A stretch of DNA of 64,000 nt from Opitutales bacterium (GCA_028045305.1 JAOFTV010000009.1:2399-66398); one strand, 5' to 3'. Shown: positions 23,542 to 42,000, numbered from the stretch's first letter. Notes: generated from the letters alone by a model not told the origin. Numbers and translations are program-made.

Positions 23542-25320
23542 ATGTGTAAATTGATTAAATTTTTAGTTTTTAGTTTATTGGCTGGATATTCCTTATTTGC
23601 TAACGCTGAGTTAGAACCAATGGTGGTGGTCGAGACCCGTAGGCCCCAACCGCTAAGTGAAGCGTCTCCTTGGGTAACGAGAATATCAGGTGATGACCTT
23701 GAACAAAGACAGATTTATAATTTGTCAGATGCACTACGATCTGTTCCTGGGATGGCTGTTGTAAGAACTGGCCAGATGGGTTCACAAACCTCGCTCTTCA
23801 GTCGCGGAGGTGCAAGTAATCATACCGCTTTTATATACGAGGGAAGGAAGTTGAATGGTGGCTTTTCGGGTACTTACAATCTTGGTGAGCTTTCTAATAT
23901 GGGTGCGTCAAGTATTGAAGTTTTGAAGGGTTCATCAAGTATCAATGGAGCTCATGCGATGGGCGGAACGGTTCATATGCGTAACGAATTACTTTTAAGT
24001 GATGGGTATGACTCAAAAGTAGGTTTTTCATATGGTTCATTTGATACCTTGAATTCTAATTTCAGTACCCGATTTAAAAATGGAAACTGGGCAGGAAACT
24101 TTAGTTTTTCATCTTTAGATACAGAGAATGATCGGCCACATTCAAAGTTTGAAAGTCTGAGTTCTTCATTTTTAATAGAAAACCAACTGACCGATGGGCT
24201 TTCCGTTAACTTACTTGGTTTAGGCTATGATAATTTCCTAGGTTCGAACTTTAATAAAGGATTTAATGTTGATCCAGATGCCTACCAGGAAACATTTCAT
24301 TTCCTAATTTCACCACAGTTAGAAATTGAAACAGATTCATGGGATGCAACTTTGAATTATTTATTCAGCGAGGATGAATTAAATTATACACCCTCTTACA
24401 ATATGCTATACTGGACTGAACAAGAAAATGTGGATTTTCTGACAAACCATAACCTAAGTGATATAAGCTCATTTCAAATCGGTTTAGGCTTTTCAACAAG
24501 CAGGTTTTTTAGAGAGCGTAACTTCGTTAATAGTTGGGGACAAAATTATGCTTCCTTGGGATTTCTCCATGAAATTAGCAACGACACTAAACTTTACGGG
24601 AATCTTCGTTTTAGTGATTATTCAGATTTCGAAAGCTCGGAGACATATAACTTCAAAGTTAGTAAATCATTAACCAGTGACCTGAGTATTTTTGCTAAGT
24701 TTTCTACAGGTTTCACGCCGCCAGAAGCACTGGATTTGTATAGCTATGGAGTTGGTTATCCAGGTAATCCAGATTTAAGTGCAGAGGAATCAAGGAATTA
24801 TGAACTTGGATTTTCAAAAAATGATCAAGCGTCAAGAAACGAACTGAAAATGACGTTGTTTTTTACCGAATACAATAATCTCATCCTCGCTCCATATGGT
24901 GTAGTACCTGAGAATGTAAGAAAATCAGAATCAATAGGAATTGAATTATGGTCCCATAACCAAATCACTCAAAGAGTCCATCTAGAATCTTCCGTTTCCT
25001 ACGCTAAATCCAAAAATTTGGATTCTAATGAAGATTTCCTTCCTAAGAGACCTGAATTTTTTGGTTCCGTTACAGCTACCTATTCAGAAGATGAGTTCGA
25101 TGTAGGGACTCAAATGAATTTCAAAAACAGAACTAGGGAAAGTGCTACAAAGAAAAATGATGATTACTTCTTGGTTCGGCTGTTTGGGAATTACCATATC
25201 TCGGACCAATTAACTTTTAATGCTCGAATTGAAAATCTTTTTGATGAGAACTATGAGGAAGTAATAGATTATCCAGCACTAGGTAGAGCAGCACATGCTG
25301 GATTGACTTACAATTTCTAA
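23542..25320 (+). CDS. TonB-dependent outer membrane receptor (BtuB-like architecture)
   Basis: Signal peptide; TonB box-like EPMVVVET; plug motifs LRSVPG and IEVLKG; C-terminal RIENLFDENY...GLTYNF. Confidence 0.92.
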   Translation: MCKLIKFLVFSLLAGYSLFANAELEPMVVVETRRPQPLSEASPWVTRISGDDLEQRQIYNLSDALRSVPGMAVVRTGQMGSQTSLFSRGGASNHTAFIYEGRKLNGGFSGTYNLGELSNMGASSIEVLKGSSSINGAHAMGGTVHMRNELLLSDGYDSKVGFSYGSFDTLNSNFSTRFKNGNWAGNFSFSSLDTENDRPHSKFESLSSSFLIENQLTDGLSVNLLGLGYDNFLGSNFNKGFNVDPDAYQETFHFLISPQLEIETDSWDATLNYLFSEDELNYTPSYNMLYWTEQENVDFLTNHNLSDISSFQIGLGFSTSRFFRERNFVNSWGQNYASLGFLHEISNDTKLYGNLRFSDYSDFESSETYNFKVSKSLTSDLSIFAKFSTGFTPPEALDLYSYGVGYPGNPDLSAEESRNYELGFSKNDQASRNELKMTLFFTEYNNLILAPYGVVPENVRKSESIGIELWSHNQITQRVHLESSVSYAKSKNLDSNEDFLPKRPEFFGSVTATYSEDEFDVGTQMNFKNRTRESATKKNDDYFLVRLFGNYHISDQLTFNARIENLFDENYEEVIDYPALGRAAHAGLTYNF

Positions 25321-25325
25321 GATTA

Positions 25326-25697
25326 TTACCCGCACTGCGGGCACACGCCATACAACATAACCTCAAAACCCTGTACATTAAATCCCTTTGGGACTTTGGC
25401 AGGAGGAGTATCTTGTGTTGTATCTGGCAATGCATAAAGCTTATCACAAAATCGGCAGGTAAAGTGAACCTTGTCTTTGCCGTCAACCCATTCATATCGT
25501 GGAGGTTGTCCTGGATAGTCTACCCCTACAACCTGCATTGATTCGGAAAGTGCTTTTAGATGGCGATAAATGGTGGCGATTCCAAGCTGGGAAATATTTT
25601 GGGACGCGAACTGATGAATTTCTGATGGAGTAAGTGGGCGGCCCGCAGAGCGAATCACCTCTGTTATGACTTTTGCCTGCTTGGTGTTTCTTTTCAT
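25326..25697 (-). CDS. Fur-family transcriptional regulator
   Basis: LGIATIYRHL helix; HFTCRFC and YGVCPQC zinc-site motifs. Confidence 0.88.
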   Translation of the reverse strand: MKRNTKQAKVITEVIRSAGRPLTPSEIHQFASQNISQLGIATIYRHLKALSESMQVVGVDYPGQPPRYEWVDGKDKVHFTCRFCDKLYALPDTTQDTPPAKVPKGFNVQGFEVMLYGVCPQCG

Positions 25698-25712: not shown

Positions 25713-26297
25713 CTATTTGCCCCTTTGAGCATTTTTAGTGCATTCGATGGTTTCACGTTTGAGAGATTGTACCTCTTTTTTAATTTCCGCGTAGGTCTTC
25801 TTCTCCATGCGGTCAATGAACAGAACGCCATTGAGGTGGTCAACTTCGTGCTGAATGCAACGAGCGAGCAAACCATCACATTCAAGGGTGTGTTCAGCAC
25901 CGTCCAAATCTTGATAGGATACAAAGATGCGCTCAGGGCGGGCAACATCTGCATTGATTCCGGGAAAGGAAAGGCATCCTTCTTCGTAGTAATATTCATC
26001 GCTTGGTAATGCTTTGACCACAGGGTTTGCCATGGATATTGGCATAATCAGTGAAGGAGAGAGAGGCTTGCCATCCAAGATACAGGCCATTGGATAGTCG
26101 GGGTGCTCGGGGACTTCTACCACGCAAAATTGCAGGGCTTTTCCAATTTGCTGAGCAGCCAAGCCAATGCCTTCAGTAATCCGCATTAGAACAAGCATGT
26201 CTTGCGAAAGTTTAGACAGTTGCCTGTCAAAATCTTTAACCTTCTTACCCTTTTGCCGAAGGATAGGATTTCCAAAATTACGTATACTCAAACTCAT
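25713..26297 (-). CDS. def: Peptide deformylase
   Basis: GIGLAAQQ, EGCLS and QHEVDHLNG. Confidence 0.97.
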   Translation of the reverse strand: MSLSIRNFGNPILRQKGKKVKDFDRQLSKLSQDMLVLMRITEGIGLAAQQIGKALQFCVVEVPEHPDYPMACILDGKPLSPSLIMPISMANPVVKALPSDEYYYEEGCLSFPGINADVARPERIFVSYQDLDGAEHTLECDGLLARCIQHEVDHLNGVLFIDRMEKKTYAEIKKEVQSLKRETIECTKNAQRGK

Positions 26298-26388
26298 ATT
26301 GATCAAGTTTATGGACTAAAACTGGGAAGAATTAAATTGAAATTGCATTGATTGGAGGAATTCGAAATAAAGGTATCCCAATTTGGAT

Positions 26389-28665
26389 ATGGCAAACAAG
26401 ATAAAGTTGGGAGGAATTATATTTCTTCCTATTTCTGTGGTTTTAGGAATCCTCGGATTGGGGTTTCCTGTATTCTTTGCAACGGTTTCTGAGCATACCT
26501 TGGTTGATATTGGAGCAGGTACTAAGACGATTGACGAGGAAATGATTCGTCAACTCCGTCAAAATAATGTGGGGCCAGCAGAAATGCTTTTGCCCTTGGC
26601 TTCTGTGAACAAGCGTCAGGAATTTGCCGATGCAATAGAGAGCAAAAAAAATACTCATCCTGAATTATCTATTTCTGGTGGTGGGAGTATTTTTGATATG
26701 CTTACTTTCAACGAATACTTCGGAGGTTTGGATAAATACAATCTGAATCGTGGGAGGTATCAGGCTTTCTTTGTGTACAACCGAGCAACTTCAAGGGGAG
26801 ACCTTTGGGATCGTCTGCGTGACAAAAGTTCAAACGACAATGTTCAGGCTCTTTTGCGTTCTATTCCGGTGGACGGTCGGCCTGGTTTCTTCTGGACCAA
26901 GTTAATCAATGAGCCCTTAGTTTATGCATTCCCTGGAGTGAAAGTGGCTAAACTCACAGATTATCCCTACTTTTCTGGTCGCAAGGTTCTCCTCTCTGTT
27001 GGATTGCGAGGCCCTCAGGCTTTCGATGGCAATGTTACGGAGGCTCAAATTCGCGACCTATGTCTTGCGGAAGCACGGGTTGGCTTAGCTGATTTTACTG
27101 GAGATGCGGAGTGGTTTGATGTTCGAAAAGAAGGCACGGAAACGAATATTCTTCGGGCACAGGAAAGTTTCCCTCTTTCCAACACCCTCGATTTTTCTGA
27201 TTTGGCTGATCGCTCTGTGATGCTCAAACTTGGTCGTACTAAGGACGGGGGATACGCAGTAATTATTGGTGGAATTATTAATTCGGAAGGAAAAATGGAA
27301 AGCCATGGACGCTGGCTGCCTTACCCCATTCTCGTTCCTATGATGGTGGGCACTGCAATGTCTATTGAAAAAGATTATTACACTGGAGATACAGCTTTCG
27401 AAATTGGACAACTTTCCCAAAAAGCTTTGCAGGGAGATCATTCGTCCAAAGAACGAATCCGTTCGTTCTATTGGTCTGCCCATCAACTCGCCCGTAAAAT
27501 GAACCTGATTCAAATGGCTGAACTTACGCAAAGCTGTCCGGATTTACAGGGTGTTTTCGATTTGGCCGCTTTAATTCGTATGCTGAACCGCCCGCTTTCC
27601 GCTTCCATCGGGAAAATTAAGGAAACAAACCATGGATCTGGACTGCTTCCATTAGATGAGCGCGAGGAACATAGAATCGAACTGCTCAAAATGATCGAGG
27701 AAAAGAAAGTTATCCAATCAAAATTCGATAGAGATTTGCAGATCGTTTATTCCGCGACTCTTCTATCTAGAAATCCCTCTGGGATTTTAAGGTTTGTCAG
27801 CAATTATCCTGTTTATGAGAAGGATGGAGATGACGATGCTGTCGAGCGTGCACTCGATGATATTAAGGTCGCTATGTCTCATGGCAAAGGTGGAATTGAT
27901 CATCTGCTTGACCGTAATAAGCCTATACATCACAGCGGATTTGCGGTGAGTATGGCAGAACCCTTGTTTCCTTTTTTGGGTGGCGGGTTGCTCACCACTT
28001 TATCTCACAAACACAGAGACTTTTCCATTGCCTTAAAAATTGCTCTGTTCATTGGGTCATTTTTCTGCCTCATGCTATTTATCTCTAAAACAATACCAAG
28101 ACCTAGCTTCCAAAGATCAAACAGCCATTATGGCCTTCGTTGGACTCGCAGGTTTTCGGCATCTGCTCTCTTTGCATTGCTTGGAGTTTTGGCGATCGAG
28201 CCAACTCTTTTGCAAACCCCAAGAGGGCAGGTTTCTGTAGCCGGGTTTGATTTTGCGCTTGCGAATCTGCTCGCCTACGCCAATGAGGATTCTATGGCGG
28301 ATCAAAATCTAACCATCGTAACCGCGATCATTGCAGGAGTTTTTCTGCTTATTCAAATCGTAATTTTCATGATTTGTATGTCCCGCGTATCACAAATTAA
28401 AAACGAGGAGCTCAGGGCTGGACTAAAACTCGGTCTGCTCGACAACGAGGAAAACTTATTTGATCTCGGATTGTACATAGGTCTTGGAGGAACCGTTCTT
28501 TCTCTCATCCTCCTCCTTGTGCTCGATGTTAAACAGGATGCACTCATTGGTGCTTACACCTCCACTTTGTTTGGAATTCTCTTTGTTGCGGCATTGAAAA
28601 TTGTTATAGTCCGGCCATACCGCAATCACTTGTTGGTCAAGCAATCTGAAGACAAAGGGGCATGA
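26389..28665 (+). CDS. Large inner-membrane protein with a ~500-aa predicted periplasmic domain and a C-terminal MotA/TolQ/ExbB-like channel module
   Basis: N-terminal TM plus 5 C-terminal TMs; last two read GLYIGLGGTVLSL and ALIGAYTSTLFGIL. Confidence 0.7.
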   Translation: MANKIKLGGIIFLPISVVLGILGLGFPVFFATVSEHTLVDIGAGTKTIDEEMIRQLRQNNVGPAEMLLPLASVNKRQEFADAIESKKNTHPELSISGGGSIFDMLTFNEYFGGLDKYNLNRGRYQAFFVYNRATSRGDLWDRLRDKSSNDNVQALLRSIPVDGRPGFFWTKLINEPLVYAFPGVKVAKLTDYPYFSGRKVLLSVGLRGPQAFDGNVTEAQIRDLCLAEARVGLADFTGDAEWFDVRKEGTETNILRAQESFPLSNTLDFSDLADRSVMLKLGRTKDGGYAVIIGGIINSEGKMESHGRWLPYPILVPMMVGTAMSIEKDYYTGDTAFEIGQLSQKALQGDHSSKERIRSFYWSAHQLARKMNLIQMAELTQSCPDLQGVFDLAALIRMLNRPLSASIGKIKETNHGSGLLPLDEREEHRIELLKMIEEKKVIQSKFDRDLQIVYSATLLSRNPSGILRFVSNYPVYEKDGDDDAVERALDDIKVAMSHGKGGIDHLLDRNKPIHHSGFAVSMAEPLFPFLGGGLLTTLSHKHRDFSIALKIALFIGSFFCLMLFISKTIPRPSFQRSNSHYGLRWTRRFSASALFALLGVLAIEPTLLQTPRGQVSVAGFDFALANLLAYANEDSMADQNLTIVTAIIAGVFLLIQIVIFMICMSRVSQIKNEELRAGLKLGLLDNEENLFDLGLYIGLGGTVLSLILLLVLDVKQDALIGAYTSTLFGILFVAALKIVIVRPYRNHLLVKQSEDKGA

Positions 28666-30281
28666 ACCGCAGTCTGCTGCTCGTAGTCTGCGACTTTCTG
28701 CTTCTTAGCATTCTCGCACTGGCACGCTTTGATGTGCCCAAGAATGCGTTGATTGCTCAGGATGGTCAAAAAGTCGTTTCCAAGGAAGTTGTCGAACGAA
28801 TATCTGATGGTGAAAATTACGACGATGTGGTTGCTGAATTGGAGGCAACAAATGAGACTTTGCTCGAAAATCTAAGCAGCGACAAAGATGCACTGCTTGA
28901 ACAAAAACTCAATTTGGAAGCTGAAATTGCTCAAAAACAAAAGGTTCTTGATCAAAAAGAACAGGAAATTGCCTCCAAGGACGCTGTAATTGAAGGTAAT
29001 GAGGAAGCCCTTGACCAAGCTAGAAAAGAAGCCGAAGAATTGGCAGCCCAACGCAGTGACATCGAACGTAAGAGGGAAGAATTGTTGCAAAGTAATGCGG
29101 CGTCTCAAAAAGAACTTGAATTACTGGCCAAAAACTTGGAGCAAGCTAAAAAGAAATCAGAAGAACTAACCATTCTGAAATCCAAAAAGGAAAAGGAAGC
29201 AGAAGCGGCTCGTTTGGAATTAGCGGCTTCGGTAGAAAGAGCGAAAGCCCAAGAACTTGCTGCCTCCGAAGCTAAAGCTTTGCTGATGGATGAAAAGAAA
29301 CGTTCGGATGAACTGCTCGCCTCTACTGCCCAAATTAATAGCAAAATAGACAGCTTGAACAAAGGCCTTGATGGGGTTGGTCAAGATCTTAAATCCGTGG
29401 GTGAGGGGTTAGTCGGAGTAGGGGACAAAATTTCCACTGTTTCTCAGGATGTAAGTTCGGTAAAAGAGGGAGTATCCAAAGTTGGTAAGAATGTGCAGGA
29501 ATCCGTCGATGTACAAAAAGAAAATTTCCGGAAACTTAATGAAAGACAAACTCGTTCGGTTAATGAAATCTTTACTCGGTACGAACAAAATAAGGTTACT
29601 CTTGAGCTTAACTACACTCACAAAACTGGAATCATGCAAACCAACAAGGAAGATAAATTCTCTATGGATTCCATCCTTATGGTTGACGGAAAATTTGTCT
29701 ATGCGTTGGTGCACGCCAAGGACAGTCCATTCAGGGTAGATTACAGACCTCGTAAACTCGTTGCTGTGAGCGGTCAAATTTCAGGTTCCAAACTCAAGGC
29801 TCCTTTGCCTGTTAAAGAAATAGCTTTCATGGATGATCCTAGGATCATTATTGTTCCTTTGTACGCAAAACCAGAAGAATTGATTGCATCCTCTGGGTTG
29901 GAGCTTTTTCAGGCACCGGCTAATCCATTTCTTTTTGACGATGCCGTGGTTGTGGATGTTAAAAATGGCAAGTTTGGCCAAACCAAATGTTTGCGTGATG
30001 AGAAGGACGGTCGTTACATTGAGGTGGATGAAAGACACTTTTCTTTTCTTACCGGAGCCTTCAACCCTGGAAAAGGTGACTTGGTTTTCTCACAAAAAGC
30101 GGAACTGTTAGGCATTATGGTCAATGGTGATTACGCCTTTCATGTTAAGAACTTGGGAAGTCGCATTCATGGTGGATCTCGGACACTTCTCGGTTCCTCA
30201 TTTGATGCTGATAAGACTAATTTACTTTTAAAAGATATGAACAGGAAGCTTTCTGGACTCGGTAAGAAGTTCAAATATTGA
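28662..30281 (+). CDS. Single-pass membrane protein: MotB/ExbD-like TM with Asp, long coiled coil, C-terminal trypsin/HtrA-like domain
   Basis: LLLVVCDFLLLSILAL; heptad-rich E/K/A/L region ~aa 55-295; C-terminal FNPGKGDLVFSQKAELLGIMVN; ATGA overlap with the upstream gene. Confidence 0.7.
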   Translation: MNRSLLLVVCDFLLLSILALARFDVPKNALIAQDGQKVVSKEVVERISDGENYDDVVAELEATNETLLENLSSDKDALLEQKLNLEAEIAQKQKVLDQKEQEIASKDAVIEGNEEALDQARKEAEELAAQRSDIERKREELLQSNAASQKELELLAKNLEQAKKKSEELTILKSKKEKEAEAARLELAASVERAKAQELAASEAKALLMDEKKRSDELLASTAQINSKIDSLNKGLDGVGQDLKSVGEGLVGVGDKISTVSQDVSSVKEGVSKVGKNVQESVDVQKENFRKLNERQTRSVNEIFTRYEQNKVTLELNYTHKTGIMQTNKEDKFSMDSILMVDGKFVYALVHAKDSPFRVDYRPRKLVAVSGQISGSKLKAPLPVKEIAFMDDPRIIIVPLYAKPEELIASSGLELFQAPANPFLFDDAVVVDVKNGKFGQTKCLRDEKDGRYIEVDERHFSFLTGAFNPGKGDLVFSQKAELLGIMVNGDYAFHVKNLGSRIHGGSRTLLGSSFDADKTNLLLKDMNRKLSGLGKKFKY

Positions 30282-30347: not shown

Positions 30348-33300
30348 ATGCTAATCAATGCGATAAAAGAAAGAGGGTTTGCGAAAGGGATTTTGGATTT
30401 GCCAGACACCAAGGTTCCATGGCTTGCCACACTTGGATTGATTATTGTTGTCTATCTTTTGAGTTTCTGGGTTCGCCTGGAATGGATAGACTTCGCTCAG
30501 GCGAGTTATCTTGACGAGCAAGGTGAAAGAAACTTTTTGCGTCCCAATATGGTTAAGGACGGGGTTGCTTTACCCAACACCCACGATAGCTTTTATTTTG
30601 GTAGCATTGTGCAGAAGGCTGCTCTGGGTATGCATAAGGAAAATAACTTACTTCCTGGTGTTTATCAAAATGGCATGATCACAGCCCTGCCTTATTGGTT
30701 GATCAATCTATTTCCACATCTTTCGATTGAACATCTGCTTTTGTGGTTACCTGTATATATCTCGGGACTTGTTTGTATTCCCATTGTTTTGATTGGCAAT
30801 CTTTACAGGTGTACGCTTTGGGGTTTTGCTGCTGCATGTTTGGCTGTAATAACTCACAGTTATTACAATCGTACTCTTGCAGGGTATTATGATACCGATA
30901 TTTTTGCCATTACATCACCGGCGTTCTCAGTTTTCTTTCTTTTGGCAGCTTCCCGTAAACAATCGATACGATATTTACTCGCTGGTGCCATTTCCTTAAT
31001 TCTAGGTAGGTTCTTTTATGGATCGATCCAAGCAATTACCTGTTCGCTGTGCTTGGGCTTCATGGGTTACCGCATTGGACTTTTAATTTTTGATACATGG
31101 ATTCATCGTGAGGATAATTCCAGCCTTTTAGAAAAACTGGGCAAGGGATTGATGGACCCTTTTAGTTTTTCATCTGTTTTTATCATTTCTTGGATTTTAT
31201 ATGTAGAGAGTTGGTCTTCTGGTGCGCTGGTTGAACAAAACCCTAAACTATTATTTTTTGCATTGGTTTTACCAGTAACTTTACTGCTCGCTTCTTTCAC
31301 ATCGATAAGATTCAAAATTTCTGATTTACGTATATCATTTATGCAATCTAAGTTGTTGCCGTTCTTGGTTTTATCAACTTTGGTTACCGTAGGAGTTGGG
31401 GTTATCCCTTTCATTAATTATGGCCCATTTGCAGGGACTTGGTCAAAAATTACCGGAAAATTACAAAGCTATTCAGTGGTTGGGAAAACTGGAACAACCA
31501 TGGCATCTGAAGTAGGAGCTCTCAAGTTTTTGGATGTCAAAACAACCATTCGTGAGGCTAGTAAAATTCCGCATGAAGTCGTACGAAACCGTATCCTCGC
31601 AGATACGCCGACTTGTTCCTGTCCCCGTTGTATGCCGGGAGGCTTAAAAAATGCAGGATTTGTGGTGCCTGCATCTATCCTTGGTTTAATCGGCATGGGT
31701 TTGCTTATTTTAAGGTATTGGGAATTTTGTATCACTCTTCCTTTCCTTGCGATTGCATACAATTGTTTCAAAGGAGCTGTTGGCTTGAGGTTTACCGTGC
31801 ATGTTGGGAATTATGCCGCCATTGGGTTAGTTTTTTTGCTAACTGTTTTAGTTTGGGGGGGCATAAGGCTTCTTGCAAAGAAACGCTTGCAGAATGATTT
31901 GTACAGACAAAGAGCAGGTTGGGTGAGTTGGGGAGTGGTAGCACTTTTGGTTGCTTGGTTTGCCACCCCAAATTTACAACATGCTGCTAATTATCATTCC
32001 CATGTGGTTTATCCAATCAAAACCATGGAGGTACTTGAGGAACTAAATAAAGCATCAGAACCCGAGGACTTTGTTGTTACTTGGTGGGATTATGGTTCTG
32101 GGTGTTGGTACTACGGCAATACCCGAACTTTTACATCTCCCGCGCATCAAACTGTGGACAATTTTCTAAGCTCAGAAATTCTTCGATCCACTTCAGATTC
32201 CCGAGCTTATAATCTTTCACGATTAAAGACAGAGTCTTATGTTCGTTTACAGGAGGAACGTAGTCGAGAGGGAACGAGCGATTATTCAACGGCAGTCCAG
32301 GCAATGTTTCAGGACGGTTCTCCCCAACAGGTTTTTTACCAAGGATTTTTGGCAGATGCTGCTAAACCTGAATTTCTTCTTCCTCCCAAAACTCGGGATA
32401 CTTTCCTGTTTTTACCTTATGAAATTTTAAGGATTTTTCCTACCATTCTTAGCTTCAGTTCTCGAAACCTTTATTTTTCCGGCAATTCAGGGAGTAATGC
32501 TTCCAATATCAGTGAACCACCAATGAAAATTATTCGAGGAGGCAGAAGGGAAGGAACATCATATGTTTTTGATGGGGGTTATCGATTGAACCGAAGAGGT
32601 GACTTGCTCGTTGATGGTGCTCAAAAAGGAATTATTTCTTATGGTCAAGTGTTCGAAGTTGATCCACAAGGCGGACCTGCTCGAGCAGTTGATTCAGTCT
32701 CCATTGATGGTTTGAAAATTGCATTAAAGTATAATTCCTCGGTCGGTCGACGATTGGTTCATATTCCTCACCTCAATGAGTTGATTATTCTTTCAGCAGA
32801 TACCTTTCGCTCATCTTTTGCACGGCGCTACCTACTTTCCCGGTTTGTTTCTGAAGTTTATGAACATCCTTTGTTTGCAAAAGGAGCAGACCCAAGAAAG
32901 CAGCCCTTTTTCGCACAGGCAGACTGGGTGACCAGCCAAGGGTCCAAAATTTTCCTAAACATGAGAGGAGGTTACCGTATTGAAGCCGATCTGAGTAAGA
33001 ATTCTGCTATTTTGCCCGGAGTTTCTAAACCCGTTGAATTTTCCTTTCATCGGAAATTGCATGATCAGACAAATTACAAGCTTATGAATATCCCTTCCGT
33101 TGAAAAACAAAATGCTCGTTTTCACTTGATTCAGACAAGTTTGCCTTTTTTTAGCTCAGATCGAGATCAAACAATATCGAGTGATGGACAAACTGTCGCA
33201 GAATTTGCTAAGACTCATAATATTCCCCCACATGCATTGGCTCAATACAATGATTTTAAACTAGACCATGTCTTTGCCAAAGGCGATAAAGTAAGGATTC

Positions 33301-33458
33301 CTGGAAAGGGCTATCAACTTGGACAAGCTTGGTTTTTTATGGACGAAGAAGCTTTTAGAAGTGTACTTGTCCAAGGATACTTTATGGAGGATTTAAACAA
33401 TAAATATTTTGAAAAGGTTTTCGCAAATGCGTGGGGAAAGGTTTTTAAATTGAAGTAA
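30348..33458 (+). CDS. pglB: STT3/PglB-family oligosaccharyltransferase with extra inserts
   Basis: [37 protein letters not shown] (32082-32096) and DNFLSS; multi-TM N-terminal half. Confidence 0.9.
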
Positions 33459-33553
33459 GTAATTTGCGGAATCTTAATTTTATCAATTATCATTAACTTA
33501 TTGATGTATTTTTTTTGTTGTTAGCGCTAATGTTAGTTATCTAAGATAGTATT

Positions 33554-36262
33554 ATGCACCAATTCAGACGATTTTTCATTCTGGCTGTCTTGCAGCTTCT
33601 AAGTTCTGTGTGCTTGTTTGGTATTGATTCCAAGGGGGCTATCATTATTGCCAACATTGTCGGAGAGGTTGAGGTTCTGAACAACGCTACCCAAACACCA
33701 TTGTCTTCGGATAAAGTTATTACCGGGGGAGTTTTGTTTGATGGGCACACCATCAAAGCTGGAAAGGGTTCAAAAGCCATTTTACTGATGTCAAGTGGAA
33801 CCATTCTCACAGTCCGTGAAAACTCCTCCATTAACTTGAAAAAGTTCGCCCAGGAACCTTTCACTCCTGGGGATAAAAAACTTTCTGAACTCAAATCGGA
33901 GCCTAGCCCATCTGAAACCACCGTTGAAGTTGAGAAAGGCGATTTGATTTTTAACATCAAAAAGTTGGATAAGAACTCGAATTTCGATATAGAATCCCCC
34001 TTGGGAACCGCGGGAATTCGCGGAACTGCCGGTTCTGCTGGTACTGATAAACTAACTCTTACCGAAGGTGCTGTACAAATCACACCCATCGGAGGCGGAG
34101 TCCCTGTTCCTTTGGGCGCGGGCCAAACCATCGCACCAGCACCTGGAGGAGGATTGAACACTCAGCCTGCGAGTGCTGAGGACATGAATAGTATTAACTC
34201 AGAAAATGCAGAAGCAGAGTCTAACACAGCAGATGTCTCTATGGAGGATGCTGCATCCGCTCAATCGGAGGTTGAGGAAGAGTCTGCTGCGGAAGAAGAA
34301 GCTGCTGCGGAAGAAGAACCTGCGGAAGAAGAGGCCGAAGAGGCTGCCGAAGAAGAAGCTGCGGAGGAGGAAGCCCCCGCTGAAGAGGAAGCCCCTGCTG
34401 AGGAGGAAGCCCCTGCTGAGGAGGAAGCCCCTGCTGAAGAACCTGAATCTGCACCTGAAGAAGAAGCCCCCGCTGATGAACCAGCTCCTGTTGCGGAAGA
34501 AGAAGCCCCTGCAGAAGAGCCATCTGCTCCAGCCGAACCAGAACCGGCAGCTGAACCAGAACCCACTGCTCCAGAAGAAGCCCCTCCTGCTGAACAAGCT
34601 TCTGCACCTGTAGAACCTGAAGCTGCTCCGGTAAGTGAACAAGCTCCTGTAGAGGTAGCCGCACCTTCTTCAGAATCCATTCGGGAGTCTGACCCCACAA
34701 TGAGAGAAAAGCAGAAAGGTAATGATGACCTTGATGCTAAGGAAGCAGCAATTAAATCAGCCTTGATGGCAGCTGGTGTCGATGAAGACCAAGCCTCTGC
34801 TGGAGCTTCCTTTATTGGTGAATCTTCTGATACTGATAATTTCCAAATTAACCTCGATGATATTAAAAATAGTACTGCTGATGAGTTAAAAGAAGCAGCT
34901 GAAAATGTTTCTTCTGGGATTGATCCTGCTGTTGCTGATGCTTTAAAGAGGCTCAAGAGGGACTTCCCCTCCTTTTCTTCCCTTTTCGAAAAGTACAAAG
35001 ACCATGCCATAGGTATTCTTGAACTTGTCTCATCACAATCCACAAAAGCTCGGCAAGTCGCTTCTTTAAATGATCAAGTTTTTGCCTTATATACAGATGC
35101 GGAGAATAGTGCTTTTTTTGAGGAGGAGATTGGGGTTGATGATGGTGATGCCTTTCGTGATCTACTGATTGATGATCCTGTCTTTTTCTCCAAGTTTTTA
35201 CCAGCACTCAAAAAGAACCCTAGTCTCCCACCTCTCCTATTCTCTGAGTTAGCTAAGTTATCCCTGACCGATTCTGAATTAAATGAAGTCCTCTCTGATG
35301 TCGGCGAAGGTCCCGGTGATGCCTCTCCATCGGGTAACCCCCCTGCAACATCTTCGCTCAATCTTTCTCAGGAAGCTGAAATGCTTCACCTATTGCAAGA
35401 TCATAAGATCTCTCCTGAGACCCTAGACGAAACCTTATTCATTTCATCTAACAATTTTGTGGCGAGTGTGTTTTTTGATGATGTTGTACAAGCTTATGCA
35501 GCGATGAGCCAATTGGAGGATTCTTTAACTAAGGACACTGCCGATCCTGTCATCCTTGATAGCATCGACTCCATTCAGAATTTCTCCAAGGTGTCAACAG
35601 ACTCGCAGAGCGACTCAACTGACGATGAAACTTTTATCTTCGGCGGTCGTAATGTTAGTTTATCTGGAGGTAAATATCCGGTGCTCAAAACCCCCGCTTT
35701 AATTGCTGCGTCCGAAAAACTTACTCTTCTTGGAGATTTGGTGTTCCAAGGAGATGAGAAGAGTGAACTAACCTTCCTCTCATCCGGTTCAATTGATACT
35801 ACTGATTTAACCAGTATTTCTCACCCTGGAAAACTGGGCTTTGGTTCCTTTGCCTCCCTGAATATTGAAAATGTTAGCCTAACTGCCTCTGAGATACATC
35901 TCCGGTCTTTGGATAGTATTATTCTAAAAAACACAAACCTCGTTACTAACTCTACTGGTGTGGATTTTATTCATTTAATGGCTGTCAGTGAAATAAATGC
36001 AGAGCAGTTGTCTATCCAGACTAGAGAAATCATCATGTCTGCAATGACGATTAATCTGATTGGTGTTAATTTTCCATCAGATTCGATTGTTGAGTTGAAT
36101 AGTGCTTATGGAGGCATTGGTGGTAAATATCCTAATTTTGGATCAAAGCAATATGGGAGAGTTAATTTCATCGAGGGTGTAAGATACGGTGAAAGTTTGA
36201 TCAACAGTGCATCTGCATTTGATGCTACTGGAGTAAATATTTCCATAGGGAAATTGCAGTAA
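33554..36262 (+). CDS. Large exported protein: FecR-like domain, acidic Ala/Glu/Pro linker, beta-rich C-terminal domain
   Basis: Signal peptide; FecR signature FDIESPLGTAGIRGT; AEEEAP repeats; no C-terminal TM. Confidence 0.8.
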   Translation: MHQFRRFFILAVLQLLSSVCLFGIDSKGAIIIANIVGEVEVLNNATQTPLSSDKVITGGVLFDGHTIKAGKGSKAILLMSSGTILTVRENSSINLKKFAQEPFTPGDKKLSELKSEPSPSETTVEVEKGDLIFNIKKLDKNSNFDIESPLGTAGIRGTAGSAGTDKLTLTEGAVQITPIGGGVPVPLGAGQTIAPAPGGGLNTQPASAEDMNSINSENAEAESNTADVSMEDAASAQSEVEEESAAEEEAAAEEEPAEEEAEEAAEEEAAEEEAPAEEEAPAEEEAPAEEEAPAEEPESAPEEEAPADEPAPVAEEEAPAEEPSAPAEPEPAAEPEPTAPEEAPPAEQASAPVEPEAAPVSEQAPVEVAAPSSESIRESDPTMREKQKGNDDLDAKEAAIKSALMAAGVDEDQASAGASFIGESSDTDNFQINLDDIKNSTADELKEAAENVSSGIDPAVADALKRLKRDFPSFSSLFEKYKDHAIGILELVSSQSTKARQVASLNDQVFALYTDAENSAFFEEEIGVDDGDAFRDLLIDDPVFFSKFLPALKKNPSLPPLLFSELAKLSLTDSELNEVLSDVGEGPGDASPSGNPPATSSLNLSQEAEMLHLLQDHKISPETLDETLFISSNNFVASVFFDDVVQAYAAMSQLEDSLTKDTADPVILDSIDSIQNFSKVSTDSQSDSTDDETFIFGGRNVSLSGGKYPVLKTPALIAASEKLTLLGDLVFQGDEKSELTFLSSGSIDTTDLTSISHPGKLGFGSFASLNIENVSLTASEIHLRSLDSIILKNTNLVTNSTGVDFIHLMAVSEINAEQLSIQTREIIMSAMTINLIGVNFPSDSIVELNSAYGGIGGKYPNFGSKQYGRVNFIEGVRYGESLINSASAFDATGVNISIGKLQ
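34361..34432 (+). repeat. Four 18-bp tandem repeats encoding AEEEAP, within a longer degenerate acidic region (~34270-34670)
   Basis: gcggaggaggaagccccc / gctgaagaggaagcccct / gctgaggaggaagcccct x2. Confidence 0.9.
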
Positions 36263-36294
36263 AACTAGCCCAATTTCTTTTAGGAATTGCCGAC

Positions 36295-37374
36295 ATGCTG
36301 CTGTTTATAAAGAATACAAGAATGCTTAGGAGTCTTTTCTTTTTTTGTTATCTATTATGCTGGTTAAATGTTGTGGGGCAGGAATCGTCCAACACATCAA
36401 ACAAATCTGATTCTCAAGAAAGTGTTCTTCCATCGGATTTCTTTGCTGGTGCTTTAGCGGATGCTACATCTATTAGTGAAGAATCAAGCAAGCAGAGATT
36501 AATAGATGTGAAAAGCACCACACTTTCACCAGCTTTAGCGTTTGGGTCATCATTTAAATATATCAATAATCCTGAAAAAAATTCTCTTTTATCTAGAAAA
36601 AGAGATGGTTCAGCATTGGATGTAAGCCTTACCTTTACTATGGGCTTGGGTGAGTATGGACTTTCTGATTTTGCGGTTACAGCACCATCTTTTATGTTTA
36701 TGAAGATGAGGACCTACAATGATCCTAACAAAGACTTTGGTCGGGAAATGGAAGCATATGATGTTGCAGTTCAAATAGCAGGCTTATCAATCCCATTTGT
36801 ATTACCCTATGATTTTACGGCAACTCTTGGGCACACCTATGTGGTTCCTTCACAGTTTCGTAATGCCGACAACATACTTTCTTATTCGAATACACCAAAT
36901 TTCAACATTGCTCGCCCCATTGCTCTTCCAAATGGGGATGTACTAGCTATAACGACGGGCGTAAGCTATACTTTTTCTGAGGGTGATTCTTTAGAGGAGA
37001 GTTTGAAATCAGCCGGTTTGCCTGTTTCATTAATCAATTCCATTGCAACCGTTGAGGCAAATTCTGCATCTCCTTACAACTTGCAAAATGGTTTTAGTCA
37101 CAGTGTTGGTCTCTCTTACCCAAAACCGCTTAATGAAAAACTGACAGTTACACCCAGTCTGAATTACTCTAAAATGCATTATGACAAAGGATCCAATGAT
37201 GGTCGGAAAGATACAACCTATGTTGCAGGGCTTACTGCAGCATATAAAGTAAATGATTGGATGAATGTTACCGGACTTGCGAATTATACGATTAAGAAGA
37301 CCAATGGTAATCTGTCTCCCGAGTTTAAAGATTTTGTTGGTGGTATCAGCGTTGGGTTCAGTCATTCTTTCTAA
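36295..37374 (+). CDS. Putative outer-membrane beta-barrel protein
   Basis: Signal peptide; alternating aromatic/hydrophobic strands; C-terminal beta-signal GISVGFSHSF. Confidence 0.75.
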   Translation: MLLFIKNTRMLRSLFFFCYLLCWLNVVGQESSNTSNKSDSQESVLPSDFFAGALADATSISEESSKQRLIDVKSTTLSPALAFGSSFKYINNPEKNSLLSRKRDGSALDVSLTFTMGLGEYGLSDFAVTAPSFMFMKMRTYNDPNKDFGREMEAYDVAVQIAGLSIPFVLPYDFTATLGHTYVVPSQFRNADNILSYSNTPNFNIARPIALPNGDVLAITTGVSYTFSEGDSLEESLKSAGLPVSLINSIATVEANSASPYNLQNGFSHSVGLSYPKPLNEKLTVTPSLNYSKMHYDKGSNDGRKDTTYVAGLTAAYKVNDWMNVTGLANYTIKKTNGNLSPEFKDFVGGISVGFSHSF

Positions 37375-37377
37375 TTT

Positions 37378-38424
37378 GTGAAAATGAAAATGCCTCTTAA
37401 AGGCATTTACATATTATTTCTTGGGGTATTTTTTTTGCTTACTATTTCTTGTCGTCCAAGCGAAAAAAAAACCATCACTCAGGAGCAAGCAAATTCCCTA
37501 ATCAAACAGGCAGATGGTGACTTGTCTGAACAAAACTATCTCGCCGCATTACAAGGCTTTGAGTCTGCTCTGGTTTACTATAAAAATTTTCAACCGAATG
37601 GTAGTAAAGTCGATGAATTAAGCGCAAAAATTAGGCAGACTAAGGCGATGTCCTTGGTAAGCCATTTTCAGGCAGTCGAAAATCAAAATGAGGATGATGC
37701 AGATAAACAACTTTTGCCTAAAACATTGGAAGCAAAAGATTTTAGAGTTTTACAACTTTATGGAAATCCAGTGTTAAAGAGAAAATGGACAGATCGTAAA
37801 CTTCAAAAAAGCGGTGAGTTTGTGGGGAAAGGAAGAAAGTTCACCCTTTTTCTCAAAGATGGAGTGGAATTATTCTTAGATAATAAACATCATCAGACTC
37901 TACGATCTTGCGGACCAGCCGGTTTCACTCTTTGGGAAAATTCAGTTACTGAAATATCTTCGGGAATTTATTTGATCTCGGGGAAAAATCTTCCCGCAGA
38001 AGGATGGTTTTTTTCCTATCCTATTGGTCAATTTTACTTAAGAGCAGATGAAGCTTTTGCTGTTATGCTTGAAACAACAACGAATGGTGGTTGTAAAATC
38101 ATTAGTTTAATTGGCACCACTGAGTTGATTATGGACAGTGGAGTGCGATCTATAATCTCTCCAGGAGAACTTATTTTTTTGATGAGGGATGAATTTAGTG
38201 TAAAGATGAATATCGAACTATCCACTTTTATAGGTACTTCTAAACTTTTTTCAGAGTTTGCTTCACCTCCCCCGATGCACAAAAAAATGAGACAACAGGC
38301 ATTAATTCAAGCATTGCGTACTAAGAAGCATTATCGGGCGTTGGTGGGTGATGCAAAAACGCTTGATGATTTTGAGGTACAAATTTTAAAGGAGGAAGAT
38401 GCTTTTAAAGATTCAGGAGATTGA
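37378..38424 (+). CDS. Putative lipoprotein with a TPR-like helix pair and a FecR-like beta domain (paralog A)
   Basis: Lipobox LLTISC; helical ADGDLSEQNYLAALQGFE; SLIG...ISPGE. Confidence 0.6.
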   Translation: MKMKMPLKGIYILFLGVFFLLTISCRPSEKKTITQEQANSLIKQADGDLSEQNYLAALQGFESALVYYKNFQPNGSKVDELSAKIRQTKAMSLVSHFQAVENQNEDDADKQLLPKTLEAKDFRVLQLYGNPVLKRKWTDRKLQKSGEFVGKGRKFTLFLKDGVELFLDNKHHQTLRSCGPAGFTLWENSVTEISSGIYLISGKNLPAEGWFFSYPIGQFYLRADEAFAVMLETTTNGGCKIISLIGTTELIMDSGVRSIISPGELIFLMRDEFSVKMNIELSTFIGTSKLFSEFASPPPMHKKMRQQALIQALRTKKHYRALVGDAKTLDDFEVQILKEEDAFKDSGD

Positions 38425-38432
38425 TTGCATGG

Positions 38433-38451
38433 TTGACCATGAGTTGGTCAA
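38433..38451. promoter_or_regulatory. Perfect 7-5-7 inverted repeat; candidate operator
   Basis: TTGACCA-TGAGT-TGGTCAA in the 52-bp gap between the two paralogs. Confidence 0.4.
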
Positions 38452-38476
38452 AGAAGATGCTATTGAACAGTAAAAA

Positions 38477-39421
38477 ATGTTTTTCCGAACTTTCAGGCAC
38501 CCTCTTTTTATTCTTTCATTTCTTGGGCTTTCCTTTTTTTTTCCCTTGATTGGATTGGCCAACCCTGAACGGGATGCTCTCATCGAAGATCATTACCAAA
38601 GAGGATATGATCTTTCGGAGAGCAAGGAATTCTCAAGGGCTCTTTTGGAACTCAATCTAGCAATGAGGCACATGCGGCATCTCCCTAGGCATCCCCGTAG
38701 AATAGAGATAGAGAAGTTAATTTTAAGGACAAAGGAACGCATGGTGTTGGAGCGATATTTGCAATCAAATGAATCCTCTATCAAAAAAGATGATCATTTA
38801 CTCCCCCTGAAATTTGAACCCGATCATTTTCGTGTCCGGCAAATTTATGGAAAGGTGTACATCCGCAAGATTTGGAAAGATCGAGAAACAATTACAACAA
38901 AAGAATATATTGGAGAAGGCAGGCAGGTTTCCACACTTCCCCACGCTGGTATCGAATTGGAAGAGTCCCGCACCCAGGGTTTTATTTTACGTGCAGTAGA
39001 TGCTGCTGGATTATCTCTTCTATCCTCTAATTCACTGGAATTACATTCCGGTTGCTTTTCAATATGTTCGAATAAATATATTCCTGAACTCATGCTCAAG
39101 TCGAGTTCAGCAAACCTTTCAGTCTCGAGCAGACAGCCTTTTGCATTGTTTGTTGAGGTGGGAACAGATGGACATTTGCACGCCACCTCCCTATTGGGGG
39201 AAATTAAACTACAAAATGGTGATGATCTGGTGCAGATTCTTCCTGGCGAAAGATGTGAGTCGACTCAATATGGGCTTAATCAAATTGATGATATGGATTT
39301 GGGGTCACATTTTTTGCGATCTAAACTCCTAGGGAAATTTCAAAACCCTCCCATTTTTTACGGTCAACTTGTTCAACAAGCACGAATTCAGATTCGTCGA
39401 TCAAGAGTTTCCTTGGAATGA
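38477..39421 (+). CDS. Exported protein with a TPR-like helix pair and a FecR-like beta domain (paralog B)
   Basis: Signal peptide; colinear motifs shared with 37378-38424. Confidence 0.6.
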   Translation: MFFRTFRHPLFILSFLGLSFFFPLIGLANPERDALIEDHYQRGYDLSESKEFSRALLELNLAMRHMRHLPRHPRRIEIEKLILRTKERMVLERYLQSNESSIKKDDHLLPLKFEPDHFRVRQIYGKVYIRKIWKDRETITTKEYIGEGRQVSTLPHAGIELEESRTQGFILRAVDAAGLSLLSSNSLELHSGCFSICSNKYIPELMLKSSSANLSVSSRQPFALFVEVGTDGHLHATSLLGEIKLQNGDDLVQILPGERCESTQYGLNQIDDMDLGSHFLRSKLLGKFQNPPIFYGQLVQQARIQIRRSRVSLE

Positions 39422-39489: not shown

Positions 39490-40941
39490 ATGAAAAGAAA
39501 ACAGCGAACTATAGCTATTTTCTCTACAATTTTTTTCTGCGTATTTTTCCTTTTTTTGATTGGCTGCTTTTCCACTCACTATGATCGAACCGAAAACTTT
39601 TCGTTTCTCTGGAAGGTTGGGGACTTAAGGAATGCGGAATTAGAAGCAGCTAGGTTGGCAAGAGAAGGACCGAAGAGAGATCGTATGCTTTATTACTTGG
39701 AGCAAGGAGCTGTTGCCCGCATGCATGGTAATACCGCCAACAGTATATCTGCGTTGCAGGGAGCTTCTCGAGAGTATGATCGGTGGTACGGTCCGCATTT
39801 GTACACTCAGACCCGATTAACAGAGGAGTTTTTATCCACCTTAGGTTCGGCGGAATCTAAGCCCTATAAATCAAGGATTTATGAGCGGGTAATGTTAAGG
39901 ACTTATCAAGCTCATAACTATTTACTGGCAAAAGATTATGGGCGTGCTCGTGCAGAAATTTTTAAGACCCGCCAGGCAATAGAAGATACTAAGGATATAT
40001 GGAGCAAGGAACTTTCTGCTGCTCGTGAGATGAGTAAGAAAAAACAAGTCGATCTTACTAGCACCCTTAATGCAAAGGGTCTACCTTCCGCACTTCGTGA
40101 AGAAGGTAAAACAATCAATGCCTTGATCACGCCTGAAATTCCCAAGTTTATAAACCCAGCATCCCTTTATTTTGAAGCCTTGTATTTCCTTCATGGGGCA
40201 ACACAAAGAGAGGATTTTACCAAGGCCGAGTATTCCTTACGTATACTGAGCTCGATTTACCCTCAAAATCAATGGATTGAAGAGGACTACAGGGCGGCAA
40301 AGGCGGGAACTCGCCCAACTGAGAAAACTGTTTATGTCTTTTTTGAAACTGGGCGGGCTCCCGTAAGAGTCGAAAAGAGGTTCGATCTACCTTTGTTCTT
40401 TTTCTCCTCCACCTCCCGTGTCCCTTATCTGGGCATTGCTTTTCCAAGTCTCCGGTTAAATGATCAATATTTGAAAGATGTGAAAGTATTTCCGTCCAAT
40501 GATCAATCGAAAGCGGTAACCACCAAATTATTGGCCGACATGGATGGGATTGTTGCTCAGGAATTTAACGAATATTTCGACATTGAATTATCCAAAGCGA
40601 TCACAGGAGCCTTATCCAAGGGTGGATTGCAGTACTTAGCCACCAATTCGGTGCGTTCTGAGAATGACCTTGCCCGTGCAACTGTCGGGGCTGGTGCGGG
40701 CATGCTCGCACATGCAACTACCCGGGCAGACCTTCGTTCCTGGAGCACCTTACCAAAGCAGGTTAGGTTTTGTAAGATTCAATCCCCGAGGGATCTGAAG
40801 TTGACCTTGAGTGGAGTTGGTACGAATTTATCCACATCTGTGAACCTTGAAAATAAACAGACCCAATTGGTATGGATACGAAGTATATCTGCGTTTACTC
40901 CCTTACGGATAGTTGGTGTCTGTCCACTTTCTCAAAATTAA
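39490..40941 (+). CDS. COG3014-family lipoprotein (TPR-like)
   Basis: Lipobox FLIGC; LYYLEQG, YERVMLRTYQA..Y and ADLRSWSTLP motifs. Confidence 0.8.
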   Translation: MKRKQRTIAIFSTIFFCVFFLFLIGCFSTHYDRTENFSFLWKVGDLRNAELEAARLAREGPKRDRMLYYLEQGAVARMHGNTANSISALQGASREYDRWYGPHLYTQTRLTEEFLSTLGSAESKPYKSRIYERVMLRTYQAHNYLLAKDYGRARAEIFKTRQAIEDTKDIWSKELSAAREMSKKKQVDLTSTLNAKGLPSALREEGKTINALITPEIPKFINPASLYFEALYFLHGATQREDFTKAEYSLRILSSIYPQNQWIEEDYRAAKAGTRPTEKTVYVFFETGRAPVRVEKRFDLPLFFFSSTSRVPYLGIAFPSLRLNDQYLKDVKVFPSNDQSKAVTTKLLADMDGIVAQEFNEYFDIELSKAITGALSKGGLQYLATNSVRSENDLARATVGAGAGMLAHATTRADLRSWSTLPKQVRFCKIQSPRDLKLTLSGVGTNLSTSVNLENKQTQLVWIRSISAFTPLRIVGVCPLSQN

Positions 40942-40945
40942 AACT

Positions 40946-41386
40946 ATGAAGACTTATATCCAGAAATCTTTTTTGATTTTGTTGTTTTCTTTACTTTTTA
41001 TTCTTTCGGCGTGCTCACATAAAGGAAAAGTTGATACGGTAAGCAAGGCAGACCCTCGGGACAAAAGTGCACAACCGGAGATAAAAAAAGTTGAGTTCGG
41101 TGGCGAGTTGGAAAAAAACCTCGAAGTTGTTCGTATAACCCAGGGTAAAGCCGATGGGAATCTTCTGCGTATGCAAGTGGAAATAAAAAACTATTCCTCT
41201 AAAGATGTTCAATTTACCCATAAAATTGAATGGTTTGATGACGATGGATTTTGGGTAAAGGACACTTCGCTTGTATGGAAATCCTTGATGATTCGTCCCA
41301 AAGAATCCAAGATGATTGAGTCCATTTCTACCCGTCCGGGAGTTTCCGCTTTTAGGCTAAAGATTCAACCTGCAAAAAATCCATGA
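40946..41386 (+). CDS. YcfL/DUF1425-family lipoprotein
   Basis: Lipobox LSAC; EWFDDDGF...W motif; precedes the lpoB-like gene. Confidence 0.8.
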   Translation: MKTYIQKSFLILLFSLLFILSACSHKGKVDTVSKADPRDKSAQPEIKKVEFGGELEKNLEVVRITQGKADGNLLRMQVEIKNYSSKDVQFTHKIEWFDDDGFWVKDTSLVWKSLMIRPKESKMIESISTRPGVSAFRLKIQPAKNP

Positions 41387-42000
41387 ACCGTCTCTTATTT
41401 AGTATACCACTCATTCTTTCATTCCTTTTCTTTTCTTGCGGAGAACGCAATCCAGTCGGTCGGGCAGCCGATGCACGTTACCTCGAAGATGGGAGCAATA
41501 AGGGACTTGTGAATTTGGATAAAATTAATGCTCAGGATTTCTCTCGGGCGGCCAATCAGTTGGTAACCGATTTACTAGGCAGTGGCAGCCTAACTCAGGC
41601 ACCATTACAGCCAGCGATCCTTCACATCGGTGAGATTCGCAATGATACCCAGACTTATTTTGATACGGATCTATTGCTTCAGGGGATGAAGCGTGACTTG
41701 CTTGCTAGCAAGAAGGTGCGAATATCCACAACTGCGGGACCGGAGGGGAAGATTGCTGACTCATATGCGGACACAGTACGCAAAGAACTCGGTGCTGATG
41801 GTGATAAACAGATCAATCGTCTACGTCCTTACTTTTCTTTGTCAGGGAAAATCATTGAGGAAACTTCAAGGGTTGAGAAAGTAACACAGAAAGACTTTTA
41901 CTTTCTCCTTACCTTGACTGAATTAAACGGTGGAACCGGAGTTTGGTTTGGACGTGAATTGATCACCAAGCAAGGTAGTCGTGGAGCGATCGGTTTTTAA
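41383..42000 (+). CDS. LpoB/YcfM-like lipoprotein (penicillin-binding protein activator family)
   Basis: Lipobox LFFSC; IRNDTQTYFDTD, LSGKI and YFLLTLTEL..G..VW. Confidence 0.78.
   Translation: MNRLLFSIPLILSFLFFSCGERNPVGRAADARYLEDGSNKGLVNLDKINAQDFSRAANQLVTDLLGSGSLTQAPLQPAILHIGEIRNDTQTYFDTDLLLQGMKRDLLASKKVRISTTAGPEGKIADSYADTVRKELGADGDKQINRLRPYFSLSGKIIEETSRVEKVTQKDFYFLLTLTELNGGTGVWFGRELITKQGSRGAIGF

Follow-up and report, generated by a model that had tools for sequence, protein, structure and literature searches.

Two overlapping genes in a 64,000-nucleotide stretch of an Opitutales genome (GCA_028045305.1, JAOFTV010000009.1:2399-66398; the whole stretch is called the window here) raise the question of whether they encode an ion-driven membrane motor related to MotA and ExbB. 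Gene A (26389-28665, + strand) encodes 758 aa with six predicted transmembrane (TM) helices in its long form (AlphaFold2 mean pLDDT 83.6). Gene B (28662-30281, + strand), coupled to it by an ATGA overlap, encodes 539 aa. A sequence-only reading had called the pair an undescribed motor class. The overlap and sizes it cited are correct, the two A helices it quoted map to 28468-28506 and 28540-28581, and the lone Asp it noticed in the TM helix of B is Asp11 (codon 28692-28694). We favor a narrower answer, with a probability of about 0.6: the pair is a divergent MotA/ExbB-type, ion-driven, 5:2-like motor.

A linked gene pair in Verrucomicrobiota

Searches with the last 127 residues of A, or with a 65-row profile, detect the A core in 112 of 301 genomes of the phylum (Verrucomicrobiota), once in each. 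The best matches reach E ≤ 4e-32, and nothing comparable lies below them. Among 1.84 billion representatives, the A-core profile retrieves 521 clusters at E ≤ 1e-3 and 462 at E ≤ 1e-10. A profile of the B head finds B in 36 of 36 A-positive genomes, adjacent to A every time, and in none of 29 A-negative genomes. It also finds B in 4/4 further A-positive genomes, and there is one match per genome. At 150 loci, with some genomes present twice, a B-type N-terminus follows A in 146; the search pattern did not require the Asp, and all 146 have Asp11. Two of the other four were missed by the pattern and do carry Asp11, one is at a contig end and one has a small inserted open reading frame (ORF). Asp11 is invariant in 64/64 non-redundant B sequences. 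A and B are a discrete, linked family, always linked where checked, and the conservation that the sequence-only reading expected of the Asp and of the gene pair is borne out.

The pair is near-universal in several families (46/48 and 23/26 genomes), while both genes are absent from some members of at least six families. It sits among housekeeping genes and was not matched on plasmids or phages. Its distribution does not track flagella, Pal or PilT. It differs from MotAB in that B has no OmpA-like peptidoglycan-binding domain and that flagellar FliG occurs in only 12 of 36 pair-positive genomes.

Gene A varies in length by lineage, from ~760 aa in the window's family to ~550-600 aa in other Opitutales and ~170-225 aa in most other carriers. 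The 758 aa remarked on at the outset is therefore right for this genome and is lineage-specific. Hydropathy places the TM segments of A at residues 10-28, 547-565, 590-608, 646-664, 693-711 and 723-741, and the short forms consist of one extra TM helix and a core of three. Given this variation, what is conserved is the three-TM core. Its AlphaFold2 model is all-helical, and the cytoplasmic tail behind it has 17 residues.

Gene B has three parts. A single TM helix, predicted from hydropathy (residues 5-23; 28674-28730), carries Asp11 and leaves only ~4 residues in the cytoplasm. It is followed by a stalk of 271 aa (28731-29549), a likely coiled coil judging from look-alike matches and a heptad pattern, whose length in 64 relatives is 199-353 residues (median 272). 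The head (residues 297-539; 29550-30278) is predicted to be a trypsin/HtrA-like double beta-barrel, and the closest folds to its model include DegS and the RsgI9 S1C domain. The position of the catalytic Ser is mostly Arg or Lys in the family, and Lys471 of B aligns with it in a low-probability local alignment. The GxSG motif is absent from the head in all of 63 sequences (0/63), B has no PDZ domain, and H351 is kept in 42/46 Opitutales-type sequences. The head is thus like HtrA, DegP and DegS in predicted fold and unlike them in its Ser position, in lacking GxSG and PDZ, and in being carried on a long stalk behind an Asp-bearing TM helix. We predict from the model that it is a catalytically dead protease fold. 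The periplasmic domain described as unfamiliar in the sequence-only reading is then a known fold, and that reading was right that B carries neither an OmpA-type nor an ExbD C-terminal domain; the trypsin-like head stands there instead.

Probable kinship with MotA/ExbB motors and the rival readings

What favors kinship of A to MotA/ExbB is the identity of the motifs in its short relatives. The ExbB hexapeptide GL[FL]G[TS]V is found in 17/17 short-A relatives, in the corresponding helix, and the second motif (A-x3-T-x2-G) follows in the third helix at ExbB spacing. Hydropathy, charge pattern and AlphaFold2 helices predict a three-TM core that ends in a TM hairpin with its C-terminus inside. Across 65 cores Q656, D692, L695, Y696, G698, A722, Y723 and G729 are invariant, and P743 is invariant or nearly so. 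The Thr/Ser residues of the last two helices are also conserved (T702 in 63/65, S725 in 64/65, T726 in 50/65). A linked single-TM partner with an invariant Asp is a further feature of 5:2 motors that is present here. Only 5 of the 292 multi-TM ORFs of the genome have the minimal two-helix motif: three Pfam ExbB/TolQ genes, gene A and one further unannotated pair. An Asp-bearing TM partner lies 3' of 10 of the 292.

The family resemblance to ExbB-ExbD and TolQ-TolR (PF01618, PF02472) therefore lies in an N-out three-TM core, a GL[FL]GTV-type second-helix motif, the third-helix motif and a downstream partner with a conserved Asp. The differences are a missing profile match over cut-off for A, a cytoplasmic loop of 28 aa, a hairpin ~10 aa shorter, and a 200-350 aa stalk with a trypsin-like head on B in place of the ExbD domain. 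PF02472 is not among the matches listed for B or its 64-member alignment (best 25 of 72 families). As the sequence-only reading had it, no tonB, tolA, flagellar or zor gene is found among the 51 window proteins scanned, which leaves no TonB or TolA gene near the pair. Separate from the pair, the genome carries motor genes that Pfam does recognize (5 matches).

Several results weigh against placing A with these motors. PF01618 stays below its cut-off: one core in 65 matches at E 0.0022, A itself does not match, and the best short form scores 14.4 bits against a cut-off of 22.9. HHalign against a 33-sequence ExbB/TolQ alignment gives a probability of 6% over 12 columns. A position-specific scoring matrix for ExbB does not separate the A family (median -30) from other TM proteins (-33.5), and the A profile cross-matches neither the genuine ExbB/TolQ of the same genomes nor any PDB sequence. 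A fold search with A points neither way, with ZorA at rank 40 amid generic three-helix bundles. The shorter hairpin between the two motifs counts on the same side, as does Asn in place of T726 in 15/65 cores. The 29/33 obtained for the ExbB set is partly circular, since that set was selected with a G-x-x-G-T pattern. Pfam, NCBIfam and PADLOC return no family over cut-off for A or B, and the B matches in the Pfam/NCBIfam scan are coiled-coil look-alikes only. Because the profile tests are below significance and the fold searches indecisive, we do not place the pair in a named family. The motor proposal has thus held on the Asp and on linkage, and has gained no profile or fold match to MotA/ExbB.

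These sub-significant profile tests, together with the closed family seen in the cluster search, would suit an unrelated structural complex that tethers two membranes, with the motif a case of convergent small-residue packing and the Asp a structural polar contact. Such a complex would have to explain why the hexapeptide of all 17 short forms, ExbB spacing, an N-out three-TM core and an Asp-TM partner coincide, and why three of the only five ORFs that pass the motif test are known motors. We consider it quite improbable. A MotA-derived, sensor-gated ion channel is somewhat less so, although still unlikely. DegS and membrane-tethered S1C domains sense unfolded envelope peptides, and the head of B, with DegS and the RsgI9 domain among its closest folds, might do the same while the stalk opens an Asp-lined channel to signal or depolarise. 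In one short-A group, 7 loci (including L111:10457-13048) have a gene for a Ser/Thr kinase with an FGE-sulfatase domain directly 3' of B, and a conserved mechanical target gene was not found nearby in 61 loci. A channel of this kind is harder to reconcile with the absence of a cytoplasmic output domain from A and B and with a kinase neighbor limited to one lineage (7/61 loci). The presence of the stalk in all 64 sequences would fit force transmission.

That the pair is an anti-phage membrane system like Zorya or Kiwa appears very improbable. Eight of the 65 A cores match the KwaA profile weakly. However, the pair is single-copy, close to universal in the families named above and surrounded by housekeeping genes; the plasmid and phage searches were negative; and a zorC/D/E- or KwaB-like neighbor is not recurrent. 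PADLOC finds no ZorA/B match for the window's A or B, and the 61 loci hold no recurrent effector neighbor. The KwaA model matched no pair gene among 201 genomes, with one match in a separate 5-genome search, and KwaA itself, in the part of its description used here (bioRxiv 10.1101/2023.02.26.530102), is tetrameric, has a beta-barrel in the cytoplasm and pairs with a protein that is soluble. A divergent ion-driven motor stays the likeliest reading of the pair.

A probable internal start in gene A

The long form of A adds two elements to the core. Residues 29-546 (26473-28026, + strand) form a mostly helical domain that, judging from the TM and charge pattern, is probably periplasmic. Family and fold searches with these residues yielded no assignment, and the domain is absent from short-A lineages. 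An extra TM hairpin follows (residues 547-608; 28027-28212, + strand), with a basic loop that hydropathy and charge suggest is cytoplasmic. Charges likewise suggest that residues 29-546 and the 609-645 linker are outside and the C-terminus inside. Compared with 570-aa forms, A of the window's family has ~190 residues inserted in total (including residues ~193-307, 26965-27310), and the insertion contains a beta-rich subdomain and a helical hairpin.

Within the linker, an internal ATG (M636) would start a probable short isoform of 123 aa (28294-28665, + strand), predicted to be an ExbB-like core with three TM helices, an N-out orientation and ExbB/TolQ-like topology. In 128 of 130 loci with a long A gene, a Met lies 13-23 residues N-terminal to Q656. 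In 35 diverse loci the frequency is 91%, versus at most 43% in other 11-residue windows; short-A genes have a Met at the equivalent position in only 7/17. The distance from this Met to Q656 shifts by lineage within the divergent linker. In the window's family, codons 618-639 (28240-28305, + strand) are constrained at the nucleotide level, with synonymous divergence 0.17-0.34 of expected, and hold the 12 lowest of 750 synonymous-divergence windows in A. These codons are a candidate for an internal promoter or an initiation region, and within them a TTGC box (28259; 35 nt 5' of the internal ATG) resembles the genome's most enriched upstream word.

Related families carry the stronger start signals. 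Two are labeled Coraliomargarita-like and Opitutaceae-like after sequence similarity, and a third group is mixed. In that order, synonymous G is avoided around the internal ATG with z of -7.0, -8.4 and -4.9, values that are overstated because related, non-independent loci are counted as independent. The start-profile percentile among internal ATGs is 0.93, 0.92 and 0.79, like that of true starts. Outside the window's family, the mRNA at the internal ATG is within the most open tenth in 28/28 loci, compared with 24/28 for true B starts, 33/362 for other internal ATGs and 0/7 in short-A lineages. The window's family shares neither the openness nor the start profile (median percentile 0.33-0.41; z -1.4): its mRNA is in the most open tenth in 3/10 loci, and the start-profile percentile at M636 is 0.41. 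The TTGC box, moreover, ranks only 10th of ~4000 positions as promoter-like, and the promoter model is weak.

These last observations leave an appreciable, if minor, chance that no short A is made, and that the signal is a promoter raising B alone or a Met retained for structural reasons. In the window's family the constrained stretch, which looks like a -35 box, does sit 5' of the ATG, and the mRNA is not unusually open. Against this, the Met is kept while its distance to Q656 drifts from 13 to 21 residues, openness is maximal at the ATG with G avoided on both flanks, and in one relative GTG stands in place of the ATG of its sister. The sequence patterns suggest that the internal start is very probably used in related families and probably, with less assurance, in the window's own.

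Two genome-wide observations concern translation starts in general. A Shine-Dalgarno sequence is not enriched at starts (7% versus 10% at internal ATGs) despite the presence of an anti-Shine-Dalgarno sequence, and the upstream word with the highest enrichment is TTGC, with its peak 30-50 nt 5' of start codons. Together these suggest many short-leader or leaderless mRNAs.

A proposed mechanism, known systems and genomic setting

All mechanical steps of how the pair might work are inferred. By analogy with the known family, five A cores would ring two B helices in a 5:2 stoichiometry, and H+ or Na+ would flow past Asp11 and a ring of Thr/Ser, as ions do in ZorAB and MotAB (PMC11890865, cited, like the reports below, for parts of its text). 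The B dimer would turn or pull, with rotation again modeled on the known family, and the long stalk would transmit force across the periplasm. There an envelope protein is most likely held by one of its extended peptides, gripped in the dead protease cleft. With ~4 cytoplasmic residues on B and a 17-residue tail on A, the output is expected on the periplasmic side, as for GldM. Opitutales-type genomes probably make two proteins from one A gene, the long form and the 123-residue core; the 500-residue domain and extra helices of the former may anchor the ring while the latter fills the other positions. The A of short-A lineages lacks this domain, and the anchor proposal does not extend to them. 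The full picture would be a distinct 5:2 branch in Verrucomicrobiota, transducer-free and independent of Tol and Ton, in which one gene with a conserved internal start supplies an asymmetric ring of self-anchoring long and 123-residue subunits, and a rotating 30-50 nm coiled-coil axle with a dead HtrA tip grips and pulls envelope proteins. We put this forward tentatively, as a possibility that may well fail in one part or another.

Calling the class undescribed was an overstatement, because motors whose axle bears its own periplasmic effector head have already been predicted in print (PMC12204202). There, a tolQ-like gene and TPH-vWA proteins are predicted direct force transducers, found in Verrucomicrobia. 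Like A and B, that system has an orphan pentamer-type gene in tight linkage with its partner, and the partner's Asp helix is fused to a periplasmic effector domain of its own. It differs in having vWA rather than trypsin-like heads and mostly heterologous pairs rather than one B gene, and our A is below Pfam detection with a probable internal start. GldL-GldM and PorL-PorM (PMC9389320), whose inner dimer extends into the periplasm as a long shaft and whose outer ring has to be anchored, offer a working mode like the one proposed here. The present pair, however, has no Pfam Gld/Por match and carries ExbB-type motifs, and the periplasmic domain of its long isoform, rather than a tail in the cytoplasm, would be the anchor. 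ZorA-ZorB (PDB 8vvn; PMC11890865) resembles the pair in its three-TM core, Ser/Thr positions, Asp near the partner's N-terminus and a weak structural match. Unlike Zorya, the pair has no long cytoplasmic tail (17 aa), peptidoglycan-binding domain or effector genes, and it is inherited lineage-wide in single copy. MamO is a precedent for a repurposed protease fold (PMC4794232). A survey of MotAB homologues (PMC12505986) does not describe this architecture in its abstract and the first half of its Results, and its supplements might list members. The literature covered, mostly outside subscription journals, yielded no account of the pair, of an axle head with a trypsin-like fold or of motor A genes with internal starts.

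The neighbors of the pair otherwise vary by lineage across the 61 loci. A peptide deformylase gene (25713-26306, - strand) adjoins A, usually divergent and upstream, in 21/61 loci from several Opitutales families, and is the only neighbor retained beyond one family group. A TonB-dependent receptor (23542-25320) and a Fur-family regulator (23542-25697 together) lie ~1 kb upstream of A. The receptor neighbors the pair in 14/61 loci, all of the window's own family, to which the linkage of receptor and Fur is mostly limited. On the 3' side of B (30348-39421, + strand) are a PglB/STT3 oligosaccharyltransferase (1036 aa) and a 902-aa FecR-domain protein with an acidic Ala/Glu/Pro-rich repeat, both retained in 13-14 loci of the window's own family, then a probable beta-barrel and two unannotated proteins. 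Next in a row (39490-41997, + strand) are genes for an unannotated 483-aa probable lipoprotein, a DUF1425 protein and an LpoB-family protein. Outside the window, contig C13 of the same genome (16686-21036, - strand) carries a second motor-like pair missed by PF01618. Its first protein (428 aa) has both helix motifs and a long helical tail at the C-terminus, like ZorA; the overlapping partner (276 aa) has an Asp in its TM helix, and a 775-aa ORF comes next.

Knocking out the pair in a cultured representative would be interpretable, since it is single-copy in most Opitutaceae-like and several other families. The 123-residue and ~170-residue cores are small candidates for structure determination and reconstitution. 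For GldLM-type motors it is still open how the outer ring is anchored while the inner dimer works (PMC9389320), and an anchor-bearing long isoform would be a testable answer. If the reading is true, the pair would be a lineage-wide 5:2 motor overlooked by standard profiles, with an effector head and a ring built from two isoforms of one gene.
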